NCBI RefSeq assembly: GCF_036365525.1
Contig: NC_090374.1
Span: 129,796,421 to 129,860,420, forward strand
Direction: 5' to 3'
Length of the DNA stretch: 64,000 bases
DNA from: Heterodontus francisci
Taxonomy: Eukaryota
Made by a program: the position numbers and the translations under genes. The notes beneath the pieces are model-generated. The model ran no database searches. It was given only the letters and a program-made list of their open reading frames with translations, and was not told where the DNA came from. Shown piece by piece: positions 15,216-51,409 of the stretch. Position 1 is the stretch's first letter, and every line of letters starts with the position of its first letter.

Positions 15216-16988
15216 GAACAGTATGAGTGATTTGAGACATGACTTCTGGTAAGTGTCGTATGCCTGGGAGGAACAGTGACTTTGGACTTGTGGTTCCTAA
15301 AAGGACAAAGAGCAATAGAGTAAAAATAATTAAAGGGGGGGAGAACAGCCAATTTCAATGGGGTGAGAACAGATCTGGCCCAAGTAAATTGGAATCATAG
15401 ATTAGCAAGCAAAACTGCAACAGAGCAATAGGATGCCTTTAAAGAGGAGATAGTTCAGGTATAGCCAAGGTACATTCCCATGAAGGGGAAAGGTAAGACA
15501 AACAAAGCCAGACCTCCTGGATGGCGAAAGAGATAGAGAGGAAGATGTAGCAGGAAAAGGGTGCGTATAACAGATGTCAGGCTGATAATACAGGTTTGAA
15601 CCAGCCTGAATATCAGAAGTTCGTAGGGAAGTGAAAAAAGAAATGAGAAGCAAAGAGAGAGTATGAGAAGAGACTGGCAGCTACCATAAAAGAAAATTCA
15701 AAAGTCTTCCATGGGCATATAAATAGTAAAAGGGTGAGAAAAGGAGTGGGTTCAATTAGAGACCAAAAAAGGGATTTATGCATGGAGACAGAGGGTATGG
15801 TTGAGATACTAAATGAATACTTTGCATCTGTCTTTAACAAGGAAGAGGATGCTGCCAAAGTCACCATGAAAGAGATGGTTGAGACACTGGATGGGCTAAA
15901 AATTGTTAAAGAGGAGATATTAGAAAGGCTGGCTGTACTTAAAGTTGATAAGTTATCAGGACCGGATGGGATGCATCCGAGGATGCTGAGGCACTGGTAA
16001 TAATCTTCCAATCCTCCTTAGATACAGGGGTGGTGCCAGAGGACTAGTGCAACATCCCTGTTCAAAAAAGAGTGCAAGGATAAGCCCTGCAACTACAGGC
16101 CAGTCAGTTTAACCTTGGTGGTGGGAAAGCTTTTAGAAAGGATAATACGGGACATAATTAATAGTCACTTGGACAAATGCGGATTAATTAAGGAAAGCCA
16201 GAACTGATTTGTTACGGGCAAATTGAGCTGAACTAACTTGCTTGGATATTTTGATGCAACAACAGAGATGGTTGATGAGGGTAATGCAGTTGACGTGGTG
16301 TACATGGACTTTCAAAAGGCATTTGATAAAGTGCCACATAACAGGCTTGTCAGCAAAGTTAAAGCCCATGTAATAAAAGGGATAGCAGCCTGGATACAAA
16401 GTTGGCAAAGTGACAGGAAACAGAGAGTAGTGGTGAATGGTTGTATTTTGGACTGGAGGAAGGTATATACTGGGGCTCCCCATGTGTTGTATTAGAATCA
16501 CTGCTTTCCTTGATCTATATTGAAGACCTAGACTTGGGTGTGCAGAGCACAATTTCAGAATTTTTGAACGGCACAAAACTTGGAAGTATTGTGAACTGTG
16601 AGGAGGACAGTGATAAGACTTCAAGAGGACAGACAGACTGGTGGAATGGGCAGACATGTGGCAAATGAAATTTAATGCAGAAATGTGAAGTGATACATTT
16701 TGTTAGGAAGAATGAGCAGAGGTAATACAAAATAAAGGGGTGTAGGAGCAGAGGGACCTGGGGTATATGTGCACAAATTGTTGAAGGTGGCAGGGCAAGT
16801 TGAGAAAGCAGCTAATAAAGCAGACAGGATATAGGCTTTATAAACAGAGGCACAGAATACAAAAGTTATGGTGAACCTTTATAAAACACTGGTTCGAACT
16901 CAACTGGAATATGGTGTCCAGTTCGGGGCACTACTCTTTAAGGCGGCTGTGAAGGCATTAGAGAGGGTTCAGGAACGATTTACGATAA

Positions 16989-19900
16989 CAAAGTGACTTC
17001 TGACAACACAGCCAAGTGCCGACATCATCAGTGCGTTCCCAGCTGTGCACAAGCGCAGAATGGTTTCTTCCTCAGCCCATCGCTCCTGGCCTCGCCGCTT
17101 TCTCCCGACAGCCCATCGCTCCCGGCCTCGCCGCTTTCTCCCGACAGCCCATCGCTCCCGGCCTCGCTGCTTCCTTCCCTCAGCCCATCGCTCCCGGCCT
17201 CGCTGCTTCCTTCCCTCAGCGACTCGCTCCCGGCCTCGCCGCTTCCTTCCCTCAGCCCATCGCTCCCGGCCTCGCTGCTTCCTTCCCTCAGCTACTCGCT
17301 CCCGGCCTCGCCGCTTCCTTCCCTCAGCCCATCGCTCCCGGCCTCGCCGCTTCCTTCCCTCAGCCCATCGCTCCTGGCCTCGCCGCTTCCTTCCCTCAGC
17401 CCATCGCTCCCGGCCTCGCCGCTTCCTTCCCTCAGCCCATCGCTCCCGGCCTCGCCGCTTCCTTCCCTCAGCCCATCGCTCCCGGCCTCGCCGCTTCCTT
17501 CCGACAGCCCATCGCTCCCGGCCTCGCCGCTTCCTTCCCTCAGCCCATCGCTCCCGGCCTCGCTGCTTCCTTCCCTCAGCCCATCGCTCCCGGCCTCGCC
17601 GCTTCCTTCCCTCAGCGACTCGCTCCCGGCCTCGCCGCTTCCTTCCCTCAGCGACTCGCTCCCGGCCTCGCCGCTTCCTTCCCTCAGCCCATCGCTCCCG
17701 GCCTCTCCGCTTCCTTCACTCAGCCCATCGCTCCCGGCCTCGCCGCCTCCTTCACTCAGCCCATCGCTCCTGGCCTCGCCGCTTCCTTCCCTCAGCCCAT
17801 CGCTCCCGGCCTCGCCGCTTCCTTCCCTCAGCCCATCGCTCCCGGCCTCGCCACTTCCTTCCCTCAGCCCATCACTCCCGGCCTCGCCGCTTCCTTCCGA
17901 CAGCCCATCGCTCCCGGCCTCTCCGCTTCCTTCCCTCAGCTACTCGCTCCCGGCCTCGCTGCTTCCTTCCCTCAGCTACTCGCTCCCGGCCTCGCCGCTT
18001 CCTTCCCTCAGCCCATCGCTCCCGGCCTCGCCGCTTCCTTCCCTCAGCCCATCGCTCCCGGCCTCGCCGCTTCCTTCCGACAGCCCATCGCTCCCGGCCT
18101 CTCCGCTTCCTTCCCTCAGCCCATCGCTCCCGGCCTCGCCGCTTCCTTCCGACAGCCCATCGCTCCCGGCCTCTCCGCTTCCTTCCCTCAGCTACTCGCT
18201 CCCGGCCTCGCTGCTTCCTTCCCTCAGCTACTCGCTCCCGGCCTCTCCGCTTCCTTCCCTCAGCTACTCGCTCCCGGCCTCGCTGCTTCCTTCCCTCAGC
18301 TACTCGCTCCCGGCCTCGCCGCTTCCTTCCCTCAGCCCATCGCTCCCGGCCTCGCCGCTTCCTTCCCTCAGCCCATCGCTCCCGGCCTCGCCGCTTCCTT
18401 CCGACAGCCCATCGCTCCCGGCCTCTCCGCTTCCTTCCCTCAGCTACTCGCTCCCGGCCTCGCTGCTTCCTTCCCTCAGCTACTCGCTCCCGGCCTCTCC
18501 GCTTCCTTCCCTCAGCTACTCGCTCCCGGCCTCGCTGCTTCCTTCCCTCAGCTACTCGCTCCCGGCCTCGCCGCTTCCTTCCCTTAGCCCATCGCTCCCG
18601 GCTCGCCGCTTCCTTCCCTCAGCCCATCGCTCCCGGCCTCGCCGCTTCCTTCCCTCAGCCCATCGCTCCCGGCCTCGCCGCTTCCTTCCCTCAGCCCATC
18701 GCTCCCGGCCTCGCCACTTCCTTCCGACAGCCACTCGCTCCTGGCCTCGCCGCTTCCTTCCGACAGCCACTCGCTCCTGGCCTCGCTGCTTCCTTCCGAC
18801 AGCCCATCGCTCCCGGCCTCGCCGCTTCCTTCTGACAGCCACTCGCTCCTGGCCTCGCCGCTTCCTTCCGACAGCCACTCGCTCCTGGCCTCGCCGCTTC
18901 CTTCCGACAGCCACTCGCTCCTGGCCTCGCTGCTTCCTTCCGACAGCCCATCGCTCCCGGCCTCGCAGCTTCCTTCCGACAGCCCATCGCTCCTGGCCTC
19001 GCCGCTTCCTTCCGACAGCCACTCGCTCCCGGCCTCGCCGCTTCCTTCCCTCAGCCCATCGCTCCCGGCCTCGCTGCTTCCTTCCCTCAGCGACTCGCTC
19101 CCGGCCTCGCTGCTTCCTTCCCTCAGCCCATCGCTCCCGGCCTCGCCGCTTCCTTCCCTCAGCCCATCGCTCCCGGCCTCGCCGCTTCCTTCCCTCAGCC
19201 CATCGCTCCCGGCCTCGCCGCTTCCTTCCCTCAGCCCATCGCTCCCGGCCTCGCTGCTTCCTTCCGACAGCCCATCGCTCCCGGCCTCGCCGCTTCCTTC
19301 CGACAGCCCATCGCTCCCGGCCTCGCCGCTTCCTTCCGACAGCCCATCGCTCCCGGCCTCGCTGCTTCCTTCCCTCAGCTACTCGCTCCCGGCCTCGCCG
19401 CTTCCTTCCGACAGCCCATCGCTCCCGGCCTCGCCGCTTCCTTCCGACAGCCACTCGCTCCCGGCCTCGCCGCTTCCTTCCGACAGCCCATCGCTCCTGG
19501 CCTCGCTGCTTCCTTCCCTCAGCTACTCGCTCCCGGCCTCGCCGCTTCCTTCCGACAGCCCATCGCTCCCGGCCTCGCCGCTTCCTTCCGACAGCCCATC
19601 GCTCCCGGCCTCGCCGCTTCCTTCCGACAGCCACTCGCTCCCGGCCTCGCCACTTCCTTCCGACAGCCACTCGCTCCCGGCCTCGCCGCTTCCTTCCGAC
19701 AGCCACTCGCTCCTGGCCTCTCCGCTTCCTTCCCTCAGCTACTCGCTCCCGGCCTCGCCGCTTCCTTCCGACAGCCCATCGCTCCCGGCCTCGCCACTTC
19801 CTTCCGACAGCCCATCGCTCCCGGCCTCGCCGCTTCCTTCCGACAGCCACTCGCTCCTGGCCTCGCCGCTTCCTTCCGACAGCCACTCGCTCCTGGCCTC

Positions 19901-21062
19901 GCCGCTTCCTTCCGACAGCCACTCGCTCCTGGCCTCGCCGCTTCCTTCCGACAGCTACTCGCTCCTGGCCTCGCCGCTTCCTTCCGACAGCCACTCGCTC
20001 CTGGCCTCGCCGCTTCCTTCCGACAGCCACTCGCTCCTGGCCTCGCCGCTTCCTTCCGACAGCCCATCGCTCCCGGCCTCGCTGCTTCCTTCCCTCAGCT
20101 ACTCGCTCCTGGCCTCGCCGCTTCCTTCCGACAGCCCATCGCTCCCGGCCTCGCTGCTTCCTTCCCTCAGCTACTCGCTCCTGGCCTCGCCGCTTCCTTC
20201 CGACAGCCCATCGCTCCCGGCCTCGCCACTTCCTTCCGACAGCCACTCGCTCCCGGCCTCGCCGCTTCCTTCCGACAGCCACTCGCTCCTGGCCTCGCCG
20301 CTTCCTTCCGACAGCCCATCGCTCCCGGCCTCGCCGCTTCCTTCCGACAGCCACTCGCTCCTGGCCTCGCCGCTTCCTTCCGACAGCCACTCGCTCCTGG
20401 CCTCGCTGCTTCCTTCCGACAGCCCATCGCTCCCGGCCTCGCCGCTTCCTTCCGACAGCCACTCGCTCCTGGCCTCGCCGCTTCCTTCCGACAGCCACTC
20501 GCTCCTGGCCTCACTGCTTCCTTCCGACAGCCCATCGCTCCCGGCCTCGCTGCTTCCTTCCAACAGCCCATCGCTCCCGGCCTCGCCGCTTCCTTAGGAC
20601 AGCCCATCGCTCCCGGCCTCGCAGCTTCCTTCCGACAGCCCATCGCTCCCGGCCTCGCCGCTTCCTTCCGACAGCCCATCGCTCCCGGCCTCGCTGCTTC
20701 CTCCCTCAACTGATCGCTCCCCGTTGTGCCACCCGAAGAAGCAGCGGGGAGCGAGCTGCCGAAGCACAAGGCGGGAAGCGAGCGGCTGAGGGAAGGCAGC
20801 GGCGGGTGAATGTCGAGCAGACGGGCACAGGAGGGAGTGGCGAAGAGAAGTGCAGTGGCAGAAGGAAGCGAGGTACAGTTGGGTGTAGGATGGAGGTGGC
20901 GATCGCAGCCATTGAGGGGATTTGGGCTAAATTAGTTTTTGGTGATAAACAGAGCAGCACCATCTTTATTATTGGCAGCTGCCTGAGATGTCGCAGCCAG
21001 TGGATGAGGCTGCATTTGTGCTTGTTTCAGTACAGTGCCACCTCGTGACTGCGTTGTCAGCA
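16989..21062 (-). mobile_element. Helentron-like non-autonomous element, copy 1, containing a large minisatellite
   Basis: Asymmetric subterminal inverted repeat ctgacaacacag (17000-17011) / ctgcgttgtcag (21049-21060), terminal palindrome aagtgactt (16991-16999), insertion in AA/TT with no clear TSD, and both ends homologous to 42728-43814. Confidence 0.65.
17067..20708. repeat. GC-rich 36-bp minisatellite, about 100 units
   Basis: Unit gcccatcgctcccggcctcgccgcttccttccctca with variants (ccgaca, ctactcg, ccactcg). It gives 12-aa periodic translations in all frames. Confidence 0.98.
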
Positions 21063-46386: not shown

Positions 46387-46620
<234 letters not shown>

Positions 46621-46838
46621 TGAACATTGCTTTGAATGGTGATTTAATTGACAGAATCTCCATCACTAAAAGCTGCGCCACAAGCCATAAAATAAAAAGC
46701 ATTAAGCTTTATTTCTGCAGGGATAGAATTGATAAATAGGGAAGTTATGCTAAACCTATATTGAACCTCGGTTACACTTGCAGTACGTCATGCAGTTTTG
46801 ATCGCCATTTTATGAAAAGGACATAGAGACAATGCGAA

Positions 46839-47690
46839 GACTACATCTGCAGGAAGTGTACCCAGTTGCAGCTCCTCACAGACTGCATGGATCGGTTGGA
46901 GCAGCAACTGGATGCACTTAGGAGCATGCAGGTGGCAGAAAGTGTCATAGACAGGAGTTTTAGAGAAGTGGTTACACCCAAGGTGCAGGCAGATAGATGG
47001 GTGACTGCTAGAAGGGGCAGGCAGTCAGTGCAGGAATCCCCTGTGGCTATCCCCCTCTCTAACAAGTATACCATTTTGGATACTGTTGAGGGGGATGGCC
47101 TATCAGGGGAAAACAGCAGCAGCCAGAGCAGTGGCACCACGGCTGGCACTGTTGTTCAGCAGGGAAGGGCAAAGCGCAGAAGAGCAATAGTTATAGGGGA
47201 CTCTATAGTCAGGGGCACAGATAGGCGCTTCTGTGGACGTGAAAGAGATTCCAGGATGGTATGTTGCCTCCCTGGTGCCAGGGTCAAGGATGTCTCTGAA
47301 CGGACAGGGGGCATTCTGAAGGGGGAGGGTGAACAGCCAGAGGTTGTGGTACACATCGGTACCAACGACATATGTAGGAAGAGTGACGAGGTCCTGCAGG
47401 GGGAGTTTAGGGAGTTAGGTAGTAAGTTAAAGGACAGGACCTCTAGGGTTGTAATCTCGGGATTACTCCCTGTGCCACGTGCCAGTGAGGCTAGAAATAG
47501 GAAGATAGTGCAGCTGAACAAGTGGCTGAACAGCTGGTGTAGAAGGGAGGGTTTCAGATATCTGGACCTTTGGGATCTCTTCAGGGACAGATGGGACCTG
47601 TACAAGAAGGACGGGTTGCATCTAAACTGGAAGGGCACAAATATCCTGGCTGCGAGGTTTGCTAGCGTCACTCGGGAGGGTTTAAACTAG
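46839..47690 (+). CDS. CR1 ORF1p: zinc finger / leucine zipper remnant plus SGNH esterase domain (5'-truncated)
   Basis: DYICRKC, a heptad Leu repeat, and SGNH blocks IVIGDS, LPGA, HIGTND and DGLH. Confidence 0.9.
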   Translation, partial: DYICRKCTQLQLLTDCMDRLEQQLDALRSMQVAESVIDRSFREVVTPKVQADRWVTARRGRQSVQESPVAIPLSNKYTILDTVEGDGLSGENSSSQSSGTTAGTVVQQGRAKRRRAIVIGDSIVRGTDRRFCGRERDSRMVCCLPGARVKDVSERTGGILKGEGEQPEVVVHIGTNDICRKSDEVLQGEFRELGSKLKDRTSRVVISGLLPVPRASEARNRKIVQLNKWLNSWCRREGFRYLDLWDLFRDRWDLYKKDGLHLNWKGTNILAARFASVTREGLN

Positions 47691-50614
47691 TGTGGCAGGG
47701 GGGTGGGAACCAGAGCAGTTGGACAGCAAGTGAAATAAATGAGGGGGAACTAGTAAATAAGGCCAGTAAGCCTAAGGGGAAGAGCAGGCAGGGAGATGTT
47801 GCGGAGCACAGCGGGACTGGTGGTCTGAAGTGCATTTGTTTCAATGCGAGAAGTAAAACAGGTAAGGCAGATGAACTTAGAGCTTGGATTAGTACTTGGA
47901 ACTATGATGTTGTTGCTATTACAGAGACTTGGTTGAGCGAAGGACAGGATTGGCAGCCAAGTGTTCCAGGATTTAGGAGCTTCAGGTGGGATAGAGGGGG
48001 ATGTAAAAGGGGTGGGGGAGTTGCATTACTGGTTAAGGAGAATATCACAGCTATACTGCGGGAGGACACCTCGGAGGGGTCATGCAGTGAGGTAATATGG
48101 GTGGAGCTCAGGAATAGGAAAGGTGAAGTCACGATGTTGGGGGTTTACTACAGGCCTCCCAACAGCCAGCGGGAGGTAGAGGAGCAGATATGTAGACCGA
48201 TTTTGGAAAGATGTAAAGGTAACAGGGTTGTTGTGGTGGGTGATTTTAACTTCCCCTATATTGACTGGGACTCACTTAGTGCTAGGGGCTTAAATGGGGC
48301 AGAATTTGTAAGGGGCATCCAGGAGGGTTTCTTGAAACAATATGTAGATAGTCCAACTAGGGATGGGGCCGTACTGGACCTGGTATTGGGGAATGAGCCC
48401 GGCCAGGTGGTCGAAGTTTCAGTAGGGGAGCATTTCGGGAATAGTGACCATAATTCCATAAGTTTTAAGGTACTTATGGATAAGGATAAGAGTAGTCCTC
48501 GGGTGAAGGTGCTAAATTGGGTGAAGGCTAATTATAACAATATTAGGCAGGAACTGAAGAAGTTAGATTGGGGGCGGCTGTTTGAGGGTAAGTCAACATC
48601 TGACACGTGGGAGTCTTTCAAATGTCAGATGATTAGAATCCAGGACCAGCATGTTCCTGTGAGGAAGAAGGATAAGTTTGGCAAGTTTCAGGAACCTTGG
48701 ATAACACGGGATATTGTGAGCCTCGTCAAAAAGAAAAAGGAAGCATTCGTAAGGGCTGGAAGGCTAGGAACAGACGAATCCCTTGAGGAATATAAAGACA
48801 GTAGGAAGGAACTTAAGCAAGGAGTCAGGAGGGCTAAAAGGGGTTATGAGAAGTCATTGGCAAACAGGATTAAGGAAAATCCCAAGGCTTTTTATACGTA
48901 TATAAAGAGCAAGAGGGTAACCAGGGAAAAGGTTGGCCCACTCAAGGACAGAGAAGGGAATCTATGTGTGGAGCCAGAGGAAATGGGCGAGGTACTAAAT
49001 GAGTACTTTGCATCAGTATTCACCAAGGAGAAGGACTTGATGGATGATGAGCCTAGGGAAGGGAGTGTAGATAGTCTCAGTCATCTCATTATCAAAAAGG
49101 AGGAGGTGTTGGGTGTCTTGCAAAGCATTAATGTAGATAAGTCCCCAGGGCCTGATGGGATCTACCCCAGAATACTGAGGGAGGCAAGGGAAGAAATTGC
49201 TGGGGCCTTGACAGAAATCTTTGCATCCTCATTGGCTACAGGTGAGGTCCCAGAGGACTGGAGAATAGCCAATGTTGTTCCTTTGTTTAAGAAGGGTAGC
49301 AAGGATAATCCAGGAAATTATAGGCCGGTGAGCCTTACGTCAGTGGTAGGGAAATTATTAGAGAGGATTCTTCGGGACAGGATTTACTCCCATTTGGAAA
49401 CAAATGGACTTATTAGCAAGAGGCAGCATGGTTTTGTGAGGGGGAGGTCGTGTCTCACTAATTTGATCGAGTTTTTTGAGGAAGTGACGAAGATGATTGA
49501 TGAAGGAAGGGCAGTGGATGTTATCTATATAGACTTCAGTAAAGCCTTTGACAAGGTCCCTCATGGCAGACTGGTACAAAAGGTGAAGTCACACAGGGTC
49601 AGAGGGGAGCTGGCAAGATGGATACAGAACTGGCTCGGTCATAGAAGACAGAGGGTAGCAGTGGAAGGGTGCTTTTCTGAATGGAGGGATGTGACTAGTG
49701 GTGTTCGGCAGGGATCAGTGCTGGGACCTTTGCTGTTTGTAGTATATATAAATGATTTGGAGGAAAATGTAGCTGGTCTGATTAGTAAGTTTGCGGATGA
49801 CACAAAGGTTGGTGAAGTTGCGGACAGTGATGAGGATTGTCAGAGGATACAGCAGGAGACTTGGGCGGAGAAATGGCAGATGGAGTTTAAGTCGGACAAA
49901 TGTGAGGTAATGCATTTTGGAAGGTCTAATGCAGGTGGGAAGTATACAGTAAATGGCAGAACCCTTTGGAGTATTGACAGGCAGAGAGATCTGGGCATAC
50001 AGGTCCACAGGTCACTGAAAGTGGCAACGCAGGTGGATAAGGTAGTCAAGAAGGCATATGGCATGCTTGCCTTCATCGGTCGGGGCATAGAGTATAAAAA
50101 TTGGCAAGTCATGCTGCAGCTATACAGAACTTTAGTTAGGCCACACTTAGAGTATTGCATGCAATTCTGGTCGCCACACTACCAGAAGGACGTGGAGGCT
50201 TTGGAGAGGGTACAGAAGAGGTTTACCATGATGTTGCCTGGTCTGGAGGGCGTTAGCTATGAGGAGAGGTTGGATAGACTCGGATTGTTTTCACTGGAAC
50301 GACGGAGGTGGAGGGGCGACATGATAGAGGTTTACAAAGTTATAAGCGGCATGGACAGAGTGGATAGTCAGAAGCTTTTTCCCAGGGTGGAAGAGTCAGT
50401 TACTAGGGGACATAGGTTTAAGGTGAGAGGGACAAAATTTAGATGGGATGTGCGAGGCAAGTTCTTTACACAGAGGGTGGTGAGTGCCTGGAACATGTTG
50501 CCGGGGGAGGTGGTGGAAGCAGGTACCATAGAGACGTTTAAGAGGCATCTTGACAAATACATGAATAGGATGGGAATAGAGGGATACGGACCCCGGAAGT
50601 GCAGAAGGTTTTAG
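47690..50614 (+). CDS. CR1 ORF2p: APE endonuclease plus reverse transcriptase (974 codons, first AUG at 48134)
   Basis: FNARS, ITETW, YYRPP, VGDFN, LDLVL and SDH endonuclease motifs. YRPVSLTS, QHGF, DFSKAFD and KFADD RT motifs. Confidence 0.95.
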   Translation: MWQGGGNQSSWTASEINEGELVNKASKPKGKSRQGDVAEHSGTGGLKCICFNARSKTGKADELRAWISTWNYDVVAITETWLSEGQDWQPSVPGFRSFRWDRGGCKRGGGVALLVKENITAILREDTSEGSCSEVIWVELRNRKGEVTMLGVYYRPPNSQREVEEQICRPILERCKGNRVVVVGDFNFPYIDWDSLSARGLNGAEFVRGIQEGFLKQYVDSPTRDGAVLDLVLGNEPGQVVEVSVGEHFGNSDHNSISFKVLMDKDKSSPRVKVLNWVKANYNNIRQELKKLDWGRLFEGKSTSDTWESFKCQMIRIQDQHVPVRKKDKFGKFQEPWITRDIVSLVKKKKEAFVRAGRLGTDESLEEYKDSRKELKQGVRRAKRGYEKSLANRIKENPKAFYTYIKSKRVTREKVGPLKDREGNLCVEPEEMGEVLNEYFASVFTKEKDLMDDEPREGSVDSLSHLIIKKEEVLGVLQSINVDKSPGPDGIYPRILREAREEIAGALTEIFASSLATGEVPEDWRIANVVPLFKKGSKDNPGNYRPVSLTSVVGKLLERILRDRIYSHLETNGLISKRQHGFVRGRSCLTNLIEFFEEVTKMIDEGRAVDVIYIDFSKAFDKVPHGRLVQKVKSHRVRGELARWIQNWLGHRRQRVAVEGCFSEWRDVTSGVRQGSVLGPLLFVVYINDLEENVAGLISKFADDTKVGEVADSDEDCQRIQQETWAEKWQMEFKSDKCEVMHFGRSNAGGKYTVNGRTLWSIDRQRDLGIQVHRSLKVATQVDKVVKKAYGMLAFIGRGIEYKNWQVMLQLYRTLVRPHLEYCMQFWSPHYQKDVEALERVQKRFTMMLPGLEGVSYEERLDRLGLFSLERRRWRGDMIEVYKVISGMDRVDSQKLFPRVEESVTRGHRFKVRGTKFRWDVRGKFFTQRVVSAWNMLPGEVVEAGTIETFKRHLDKYMNRMGIEGYGPRKCRRF

Positions 50615-51409
50615 TTTAGGCAGGCATCAAGATCGGCGCAGGCTTGGAGGGCCGAATGGCCTGTTCCTGTGCTGTACTGTTCTTTGTTTTGTTAAATGGT
50701 ATAGTTCTTTGAAGAGTACAGAGAAGATTTACAAGGATGATACCAAAAATGCGTGGGTATACATATCTGGAAAGGATGAATTGGCTGGGTCTTTTTCTCT
50801 CTCTCAAAAAAAAAATAAGGCTGAGGGGTGACCTAATAGAGGTCTATAAAAATGAAAGATTTTGTTACAGTGGATATAGAAAGAATGTTTCCTCTTGTGG
50901 GGAAGAGCATAACTAGAAGCCATCAATATGAGTGTGTCACCAAAGAATCCAATCGGGAATTCAGAAGAAACTACCCAGAGTGGTGAGAATGTGCAACATG
51001 TTATCAAAGGGAGCAGTTAGATGCATTTAAGCATATGAGGGAGAAGGGATTAGAGGGTTATTATAGATTTAGATGAGGAAAGATGGGAGGAAGTTTGAGA
51101 GTAGCATAAACACCAGCATGGACTGGTTGGGCTGAGTGGCCTGTTTGTATGCTGTGTACCCTGTGTAATCCTAAGTGAAAACTAGAAGGATTTGCTGATG
51201 GCCCTCTCCCACCCTACTTTATCTAATCCTCTGCTGTTGCTGTGGACAATATTAAAATAAAAAATCACAATTGGGTAGGTCTCAGCAGCTGCCATCTCTG
51301 GACTTGCTCATTAATTGTCCGAGGTTTGGCCTGAACTTTTTGTCTGTTAAAACTAGACTGTTTAAATGTTTATAGTTGCTTCAGATTACTTGGTTAAACT
51401 TTGTTACAA

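Follow-up and report, generated by a model that had tools for sequence, protein, structure and literature searches.

A long interspersed nuclear element (LINE) of the CR1 type lies at 46836..50691 (+) in the window, the whole 64,000-nucleotide (nt) stretch of Heterodontus francisci DNA analysed here (NC_090374.1, forward-strand positions 129,796,421 to 129,860,420). The present study suggests that in vertebrate CR1 the two open reading frames (ORFs) are probably joined by programmed −1 ribosomal frameshifting at the slippery heptamer U_UUA_AAC, yielding an ORF1-ORF2 fusion. Both ends of the window copy are approximate. Alignment to sister copies, 17 of 29 of which begin matching at 46836, shows that it is 5′-truncated inside ORF1 near this position and that the ORF1 start is missing, a point that an earlier note on this DNA had not made. 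The copy is dead, and its signal reflects selection on source elements. Since it has no ORF1 start of its own, the question concerns those source elements.

The ORF1 frame runs from stop to stop at 46827..47690 (+) and encodes an SGNH/GDSL esterase (Pfam Lipase_GDSL_2, PF13472, E 3e-16), whose N-terminus is absent in the window copy and whose end reads ...REGLN-stop. Its last codons are GGT TTA AAC TAG (47679-47690). The heptamer T_TTA_AAC thus occupies 47681..47687 (+) in the X_XXY_YYZ phase, and the ORF1 stop at 47688..47690 (+) stands directly 3′ of it, being TAR in 25 of 25 lineage representatives. ORF2 (47666..50614, +; 982 codons) is in the −1 frame and encodes an apurinic/apyrimidinic (AP) endonuclease (Exo_endo_phos, PF03372) and a reverse transcriptase (RT; RVT_1, PF00078). 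The −1 frame is closed by a TAG at 47663..47665 (+), five codons upstream of the heptamer, and the two ORFs overlap by 25 nt, stop counted. A 52-codon linker at 47681..47836 (+), open in the −1 frame, leads from the heptamer to the FNARS motif of the endonuclease. The first in-frame AUG of ORF2 in this copy, at 48134, lies past the FNARS and ITETW motifs, well inside the endonuclease (148 codons past the codon that follows the stop of ORF1, or codon 152 counted from the heptamer). Downstream of the heptamer, at +11 to +20, a G5-NN-GGG tract at 47698..47707 (+) is a candidate 3′ stimulator; in the window copy its G runs cover 47698-47703 and 47705-47707. The earlier note had described the in-phase heptamer before the ORF1 stop, the −1 frame of ORF2 with its upstream TAG, the late AUG, the G-rich tract and the esterase ORF1 of a CR1 element, and the sequence, the ORF list and the Pfam matches bear this description out.

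CR1 elements have a short 3′ untranslated region (UTR) with a stem-loop and short repeats and no poly(A), and they are frequently 5′-truncated. The window copy has an esterase ORF1, an AP endonuclease followed by RT, a 5′ truncation and a short 3′ UTR (50615..50691, +) with a predicted stem-loop, which ends in short T-rich repeats and has no poly(A). It thereby resembles canonical vertebrate CR1 in its esterase ORF1, its endonuclease and RT in ORF2 and its short 3′ tail without poly(A) (PMC13343379, PMC3905857; here and below, published work is cited from the parts of each source that were covered). In a tree that held no curated CR1/L2 references, its RT groups with bird-type loci at 100/100 support and 49-50% identity. 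The closest named ORF1 homologues of the window copy are from sharks and rays. Compared with other CR1 pieces in the window, its ORF2 has about five residues absent near 49860.

TTTAAAC alone occurs eight times on the + strand of the window; therefore, only conservation can carry the claim. The heptamer followed by the stop and G5 occurs once in the window and in none of 100 shuffles. The source genome, to which the genome-wide counts refer, is 6.0 Gb in size and holds 31,098 matches to the 27-nt form as against 13 for the reversed control, these matches being LINE copies and not independent events. Within the window's own family (40 copies scored of 343 candidates), TTTAAAC is present in 29 of the 30 best-scoring copies. 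An AUG at or near 47690, which the earlier note held would argue against frameshifting, is not a feature of this family: 25 of its 26 frame-keeping copies have no AUG before the first endonuclease motif. The missing AUG is therefore a family trait and not decay of the window copy. An unbiased sample was drawn with the esterase pattern D-G-L-H-L-N, which is blind to the junction and misses a family with D-G-L-H-L-G; it has 36,090 genome matches, and the first 100, on contig C1, were taken. In these 100 copies the exact heptamer is in register in 83; an indel displaces it in 6, and 11 lack it, mostly through single changes or indels. Seven of the 100 come from what is likely a tandem segmental repeat at G000:C1:71732-183236 (L187-L193), with seven near-identical CR1 junctions about 18-19 kb apart on one strand.

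Clustering of 181 anchorable loci among 204 gave 35 groups. In the 12 groups with at least two members, the heptamer is present in 146 of 155 copies, a count obtained with an anchoring that favours copies ending in L-N, so that the 100-copy sample above is the unbiased one. The groups were merged by hand into 25 lineages, 17 from the source genome and 8 of bird-type loci from metagenome contigs, with one natural copy representing each. With named bird proteins the bird-type ORF1 proteins share up to 98% identity, with the window's ORF1 27-38%. Codon −3 has T as its third base in 25 of 25 lineages, over eight different codons; the Leu codon is TTA (background 14%) and the Asn codon AAC (background 42%) in 24 of 24 each. 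These three third positions top 144 columns in conservation, the last of them on a par with a Trp column. For the other conserved residues, Trp excluded, a single codon is shared in 35-81%, and further upstream among the 144 columns no conserved silent-site motif was found. Fourfold sites elsewhere agree at 46% among shark lineages and at 35% between shark and bird-type lineages. Two single old copies (L300 and L074) deviate from the heptamer. At a 3% threshold, contigs from four further organisms have a single variant position within 47681-47689, and 47679, 47680, 47690 and 47692 vary. The heptamer thus proved to be conserved, in phase and at synonymous sites, across deeply diverged lineages, which indicates that it is under selection beyond the needs of the protein.

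The protein records point the same way. Among the 137 ORF1 homologues, of which 85 reached the end region, an x-L-N end is present in 72 of 77 complete proteins from sharks, rays, frogs and birds. Of 108 further representatives at 50% identity, 54 have this end, and none of them has K, Q, E, M or W as x. In 10 of these 54 the tail is 6-13 residues longer and L-N is still at the stop; L-N therefore tracks the stop and not the fold. Three longer database proteins read F-K-L at the junction, which is the −1 reading of the heptamer. Named ORF1 members come from rays, frogs, birds, a snake and turtles, the evidence for frogs, the snake and turtles being at the protein level. Two CR1 ORF1 proteins, P0004 and P0127, are filed under bacterial names (Pseudomonas aeruginosa, Proteus mirabilis) and probably represent animal DNA in those records.

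How ORF2 is entered can be followed through its frame. The endonuclease motif could be located in 145 of 179 copies; in 117 of the 145 it is in the −1 frame. Fourteen lineages have an open copy. In these the motif begins at codon 38-72, and the other two frames of the linker contain 54 and 74 stops; since open copies were selected as open, only the frame counts act as a test. The length and sequence of the linker differ between lineages, and its frame is constant. No AUG precedes the endonuclease motif in 6 of the 14 readable lineages. Codon 4 takes 12 forms across lineages; AUG stands at codon 4 in 1 of 25 representatives and at codon 5 in 5 of 25, at neither in the window's family, and a conserved AUG overlapping or adjoining the stop, as in SART1, was not found. 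These data indicate that the entry point of ORF2 is at or close to the junction and that no start codon is conserved for it.

In the G tract, G is kept at +11 to +15 (21-24 of 24) and at +18 to +20 (20-23 of 24), and conservation stops there. The Gly codons that the tract forms in the −1 frame are GGG in 22 of 23 and 20 of 23 cases, against a linker background of 44%, silent positions included. A stem-loop or pseudoknot was looked for 5-9 nt downstream of the heptamer, and the conserved G tract at +11 was found instead; the earlier note had likewise seen no clear pseudoknot. The 3′ UTR was considered as a pairing partner of the tract and rejected, being equalled or beaten by 6/47, 8/46, 1/46, 22/46, 11/53, 44/48 and 32/45 ORF2 windows.

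The coronavirus ORF1a/1b shift site is U_UUA_AAC. More generally, X_XXY_YYZ is the motif that defines −1 frameshifting (PMC3542737). In CR1 the heptamer stands in the zero-frame phase, the downstream ORF is open in the −1 frame and the heptamer bears the mark of selection. The fusion resembling Gag-Pol that the earlier note had proposed is thus supported by conservation, phase and open frame, and the slip itself, how efficient it is, the fusion and the part played by the G tract are what we infer from sequence. A minority of ribosomes would slip back one base on U_UUA_AAC, by tandem −1 slippage, and would then read into ORF2. The predicted product is a fusion of ORF1, linker, endonuclease and RT with the junction peptide ...GLN-LVWQG. 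Most ribosomes would stop at the adjacent UAR, leaving the ORF1 protein (ORF1p) in excess. The least certain part is the pause, which is likely to come from the G tract at the leading edge of the ribosome, acting as a protein-binding site or a weak G-quadruplex, with help from the stop, and not from a pseudoknot.

Several observations weigh against this reading. Besides the anchoring bias mentioned above, the lineage representatives are medoids or were picked by hand, the lineages share ancestry, so that their counts are not independent trials, and 10 of 24 lineages have no open copy and are unreadable. The exclusion of K, Q, E, M and W at −3 in the proteins (1 of 65) recurs at −7 and −9 and is weak by itself. 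No shared 3′ stem emerged among 23 folded representatives (mean folding z −0.06), with programs that do not predict pseudoknots directly. A G-quadruplex is part of the lowest-energy fold in 9 of 24 as against 4.5 expected, a mild enrichment only. A search for a long-range partner of the G tract gave no consistent site: in most of the 14 elements compared, shuffled sequences did at least as well as the best sites. A further locus lacked a matching junction. The spacer between heptamer and G tract is 10 nt, whereas 5-9 nt is usual for RNA structures (PMC3542737). Furthermore, an AUG does precede the endonuclease motif in 8 of the 14 lineages (codons 4, 5, 5, 5, 10, 17, 23 and 48) and stands at codon 5 in five of eight bird-type representatives. 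By a count of the matches listed, a family with a UAAUG stop-start also makes up 30 of the first 100 motif matches.

These start codons bear on the real rival, termination-reinitiation, in which ribosomes would terminate on the UAR of ORF1 and begin again in the −1 frame, at or close to the stop, on AUG or other codons, making a free ORF2 protein (ORF2p), with the heptamer and the G tract as the restart signal. Reinitiation is the mechanism described for SART1, which has UAAUG, and proposed for L1 (PMC5972666, PMC3894237), and L1 restart tolerates loss of the AUG (PMC5009743). A linker open from the junction fits it equally well, and one large family in the genome has UAAUG in 15 of 15 copies, the window's family having UAGUG. 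However, the forms of codon 4 are often not start-like (AAT, GTT, GAT, GCT, GGT), and in 6 of the 14 lineages no AUG precedes the endonuclease motif. Reinitiation also gives no known reason for an exact, in-phase X_XXY_YYZ heptamer at three silent positions, and the 144 columns offer no other silent-site motif upstream. We consider it unlikely as the explanation, and frameshifting and reinitiation could coexist. TTTAAA is similar to TATA and to weak poly(A) hexamers, and the heterogeneous nuclear ribonucleoproteins (hnRNP) F/H bind to G tracts. The junction might therefore serve DNA or RNA processing, as a TATA-like internal promoter for an ORF2 transcript, as a UUUAAA poly(A) signal with a G-rich element or as a splice site, and a G tract without a fold would suit such a role. 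Yet it needs neither a fixed phase nor an invariant C, the stop is TAA in many lineages and hence leaves no conserved AG acceptor, and a shorter transcript would still have no AUG in the same 6 of 14 lineages. A narrow search of assembled contigs of four runs found no joint across the junction, and a wider contig comparison gave scattered single-contig joints, one ending at 47672; these contigs, mostly only guessed to be RNA and containing less than half of the words, can reveal neither ends nor strand nor rare variants. A poly(A) run follows the junction in 0 of 100 copies, although such RNAs are not expected to be copied. We regard a processing role as highly improbable.

The chance that protein constraint or shared descent explains the junction, with L-N required at the esterase end and its codons inherited by chance, appears slimmer still. 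L-N does end the last helix region in most homologues, and the heptamer-bearing lineages all form a single branch of the RT tree. Against this, silent sites elsewhere are near saturation, codon −3 changes its amino acid and never its third base, and L-N moves with the stop when the tail lengthens. The silent-site data have already largely refuted it.

With frameshifting as the preferred reading, CR1 shares with viral U_UUA_AAC sites and retroviral gag-pol an in-phase heptamer, a polymerase ORF in the −1 frame without a dependable start and, as predicted, a structural protein in excess. It differs in that no pseudoknot or stem-loop was found 5-9 nt downstream, the stop is immediate and the host is a non-LTR element (one without long terminal repeats); moreover, the CR1 shift is predicted from sequence. 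Since a 3′ structure at that distance was looked for and not found, we describe the junction as one that would work like a viral −1 site and do not file it as a standard one. Some likeness exists to the nsp2 frameshift of PRRSV (the arterivirus behind porcine reproductive and respiratory syndrome), which is trans-activated by nsp1beta and a poly(C)-binding protein at CCCANCUCC, a motif 11 nt 3′ of the shift site (PMC5009743). In both cases a short unstructured motif has a fixed place about 11 nt 3′, the CR1 tract beginning at +11. However, the CR1 tract is G-rich and not C-rich and the heptamer is another one; the resemblance is one of position only. As in SART1 and in mammalian L1, with its unconventional reinitiation, a bicistronic LINE RNA must reach ORF2, and one CR1 family shares the UAAUG of SART1. 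In contrast to both, ORF1 and ORF2 of CR1 overlap in the −1 frame, the slippery heptamer is conserved and a start codon is not, and the predicted product is a fusion and not free ORF2p.

Dictyostelium TRE5-A is a non-LTR element with overlapping ORFs. No frameshift statement on it was found in the part of PMC5006619 covered. Drosophila HeT-A is a non-LTR element linked to a gag frameshift (PMC5009743); its shift differs in lying within gag, and the element has no RT. The main text of a 2026 survey of the CR1 group (PMC13343379), in the part covered, contains none of the terms 'shift', 'slip', 'overlap', 'start codon' and 'translation'. Within the parts covered, PMC3905857 does not contain 'frameshift', and a 2016 review of frameshifting (PMC5009743) does not contain 'CR1'. 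A full-text search, including parts of PMC11835228, PMC4255032 and PMC6609765, found no report of a CR1 frameshift; the original CR1, SART1 and L1 papers and Repbase lay outside this search, and an earlier passing proposal is possible. In other words, we infer a known recoding mechanism at a place where none was found in print.

Translation of LINE ORF2 has been called an open question (PMC3894237). Reinitiation and 2A skipping are its known answers. Most vertebrates have CR1 as their dominant retrotransposon group (PMC13343379). If the proposal is true, frameshifting would set the ratio of ORF1p to ORF2p and would couple the enzyme to an esterase that binds membranes, so that a non-LTR element would have a design akin to Gag-Pol. 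ORF2 annotations that begin at an internal Met would then be truncated. Furthermore, natural use of G-quadruplexes was stated to be unknown in 2016 (PMC5009743), and the CR1 G tract would be a candidate for a natural stimulator that is G-rich and free of structure.

Other LINEs with an esterase ORF1 offer leads to recoding, which are not support for the CR1 frameshift. A distant lineage from metagenome contigs (L089-L147), whose RT is 33-41% identical to the window's, has no heptamer. It is one branch of the RT tree, and its ORF2 continues in the same frame after one stop, which is UGA in 27 of 32 loci with C at +4 in 25 of 32 (CCA 12, CUA 10). Frame 0 holds the endonuclease motif and is open in 18 of 23, and in most copies an AUG precedes the endonuclease as well. 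UGA-CUA is a type II readthrough context (PMC3542737), and the UGA-C stop suggests readthrough in this lineage. A 3′ stem-loop there was not supported (mean z 0.19, 10 loci). Ten distant ORF1 representatives (P0181, P0183, P0185, P0189, P0191-P0193, P0229, P0233 and P0249) end in x-G-N, nine of them in Q-G-N, and P0199 and P0265 end in S-K-N. At the protein level, the x-G-N ends would fit G_GGA_AAC and the S-K-N ends A_AAA_AAC slippery sites. For the Q-G-N group, the viral contigs yielded no DNA, and a further search gave one unrelated long protein. The junction motif had 0 matches in viral contigs, and the viral and prokaryote collections gave distant esterases only. A Q-G-N search of the source genome found 7 matches at 34-38% identity. 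Tentatively, and with rather more doubt than belief, one may imagine that esterase LINEs use the retroviral Gag-Pol routes: a −1 shift at U_UUA_AAC in CR1 driven by the unstructured G element at +11, which would be a natural stimulator of a new type, G_GGA_AAC in the Q-G-N branch and UGA-C readthrough in the distant lineage.

In the window, the CR1 copy sits within a HIT-domain (HINT-like) gene, in sense orientation, in the intron that follows a 105-nt exon at 46405-46509 (+; PF01230, E 6e-8). It is nested in an older CR1 fragment, an RT piece that spans the insertion, with 46663-46846 matching ORF2 residues 783-850 and 50704-50932 matching residues 845-919. GAAGA at 46836-46840 and at 50711-50715 may be a 5-bp target duplication. 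At least 10 more 5′-truncated CR1 ORF2 fragments lie on both strands between 493 and 41561, none with ORF1. A GC-rich tandem repeat at about 16950-20700 gives rise to long low-complexity ORFs on both strands.

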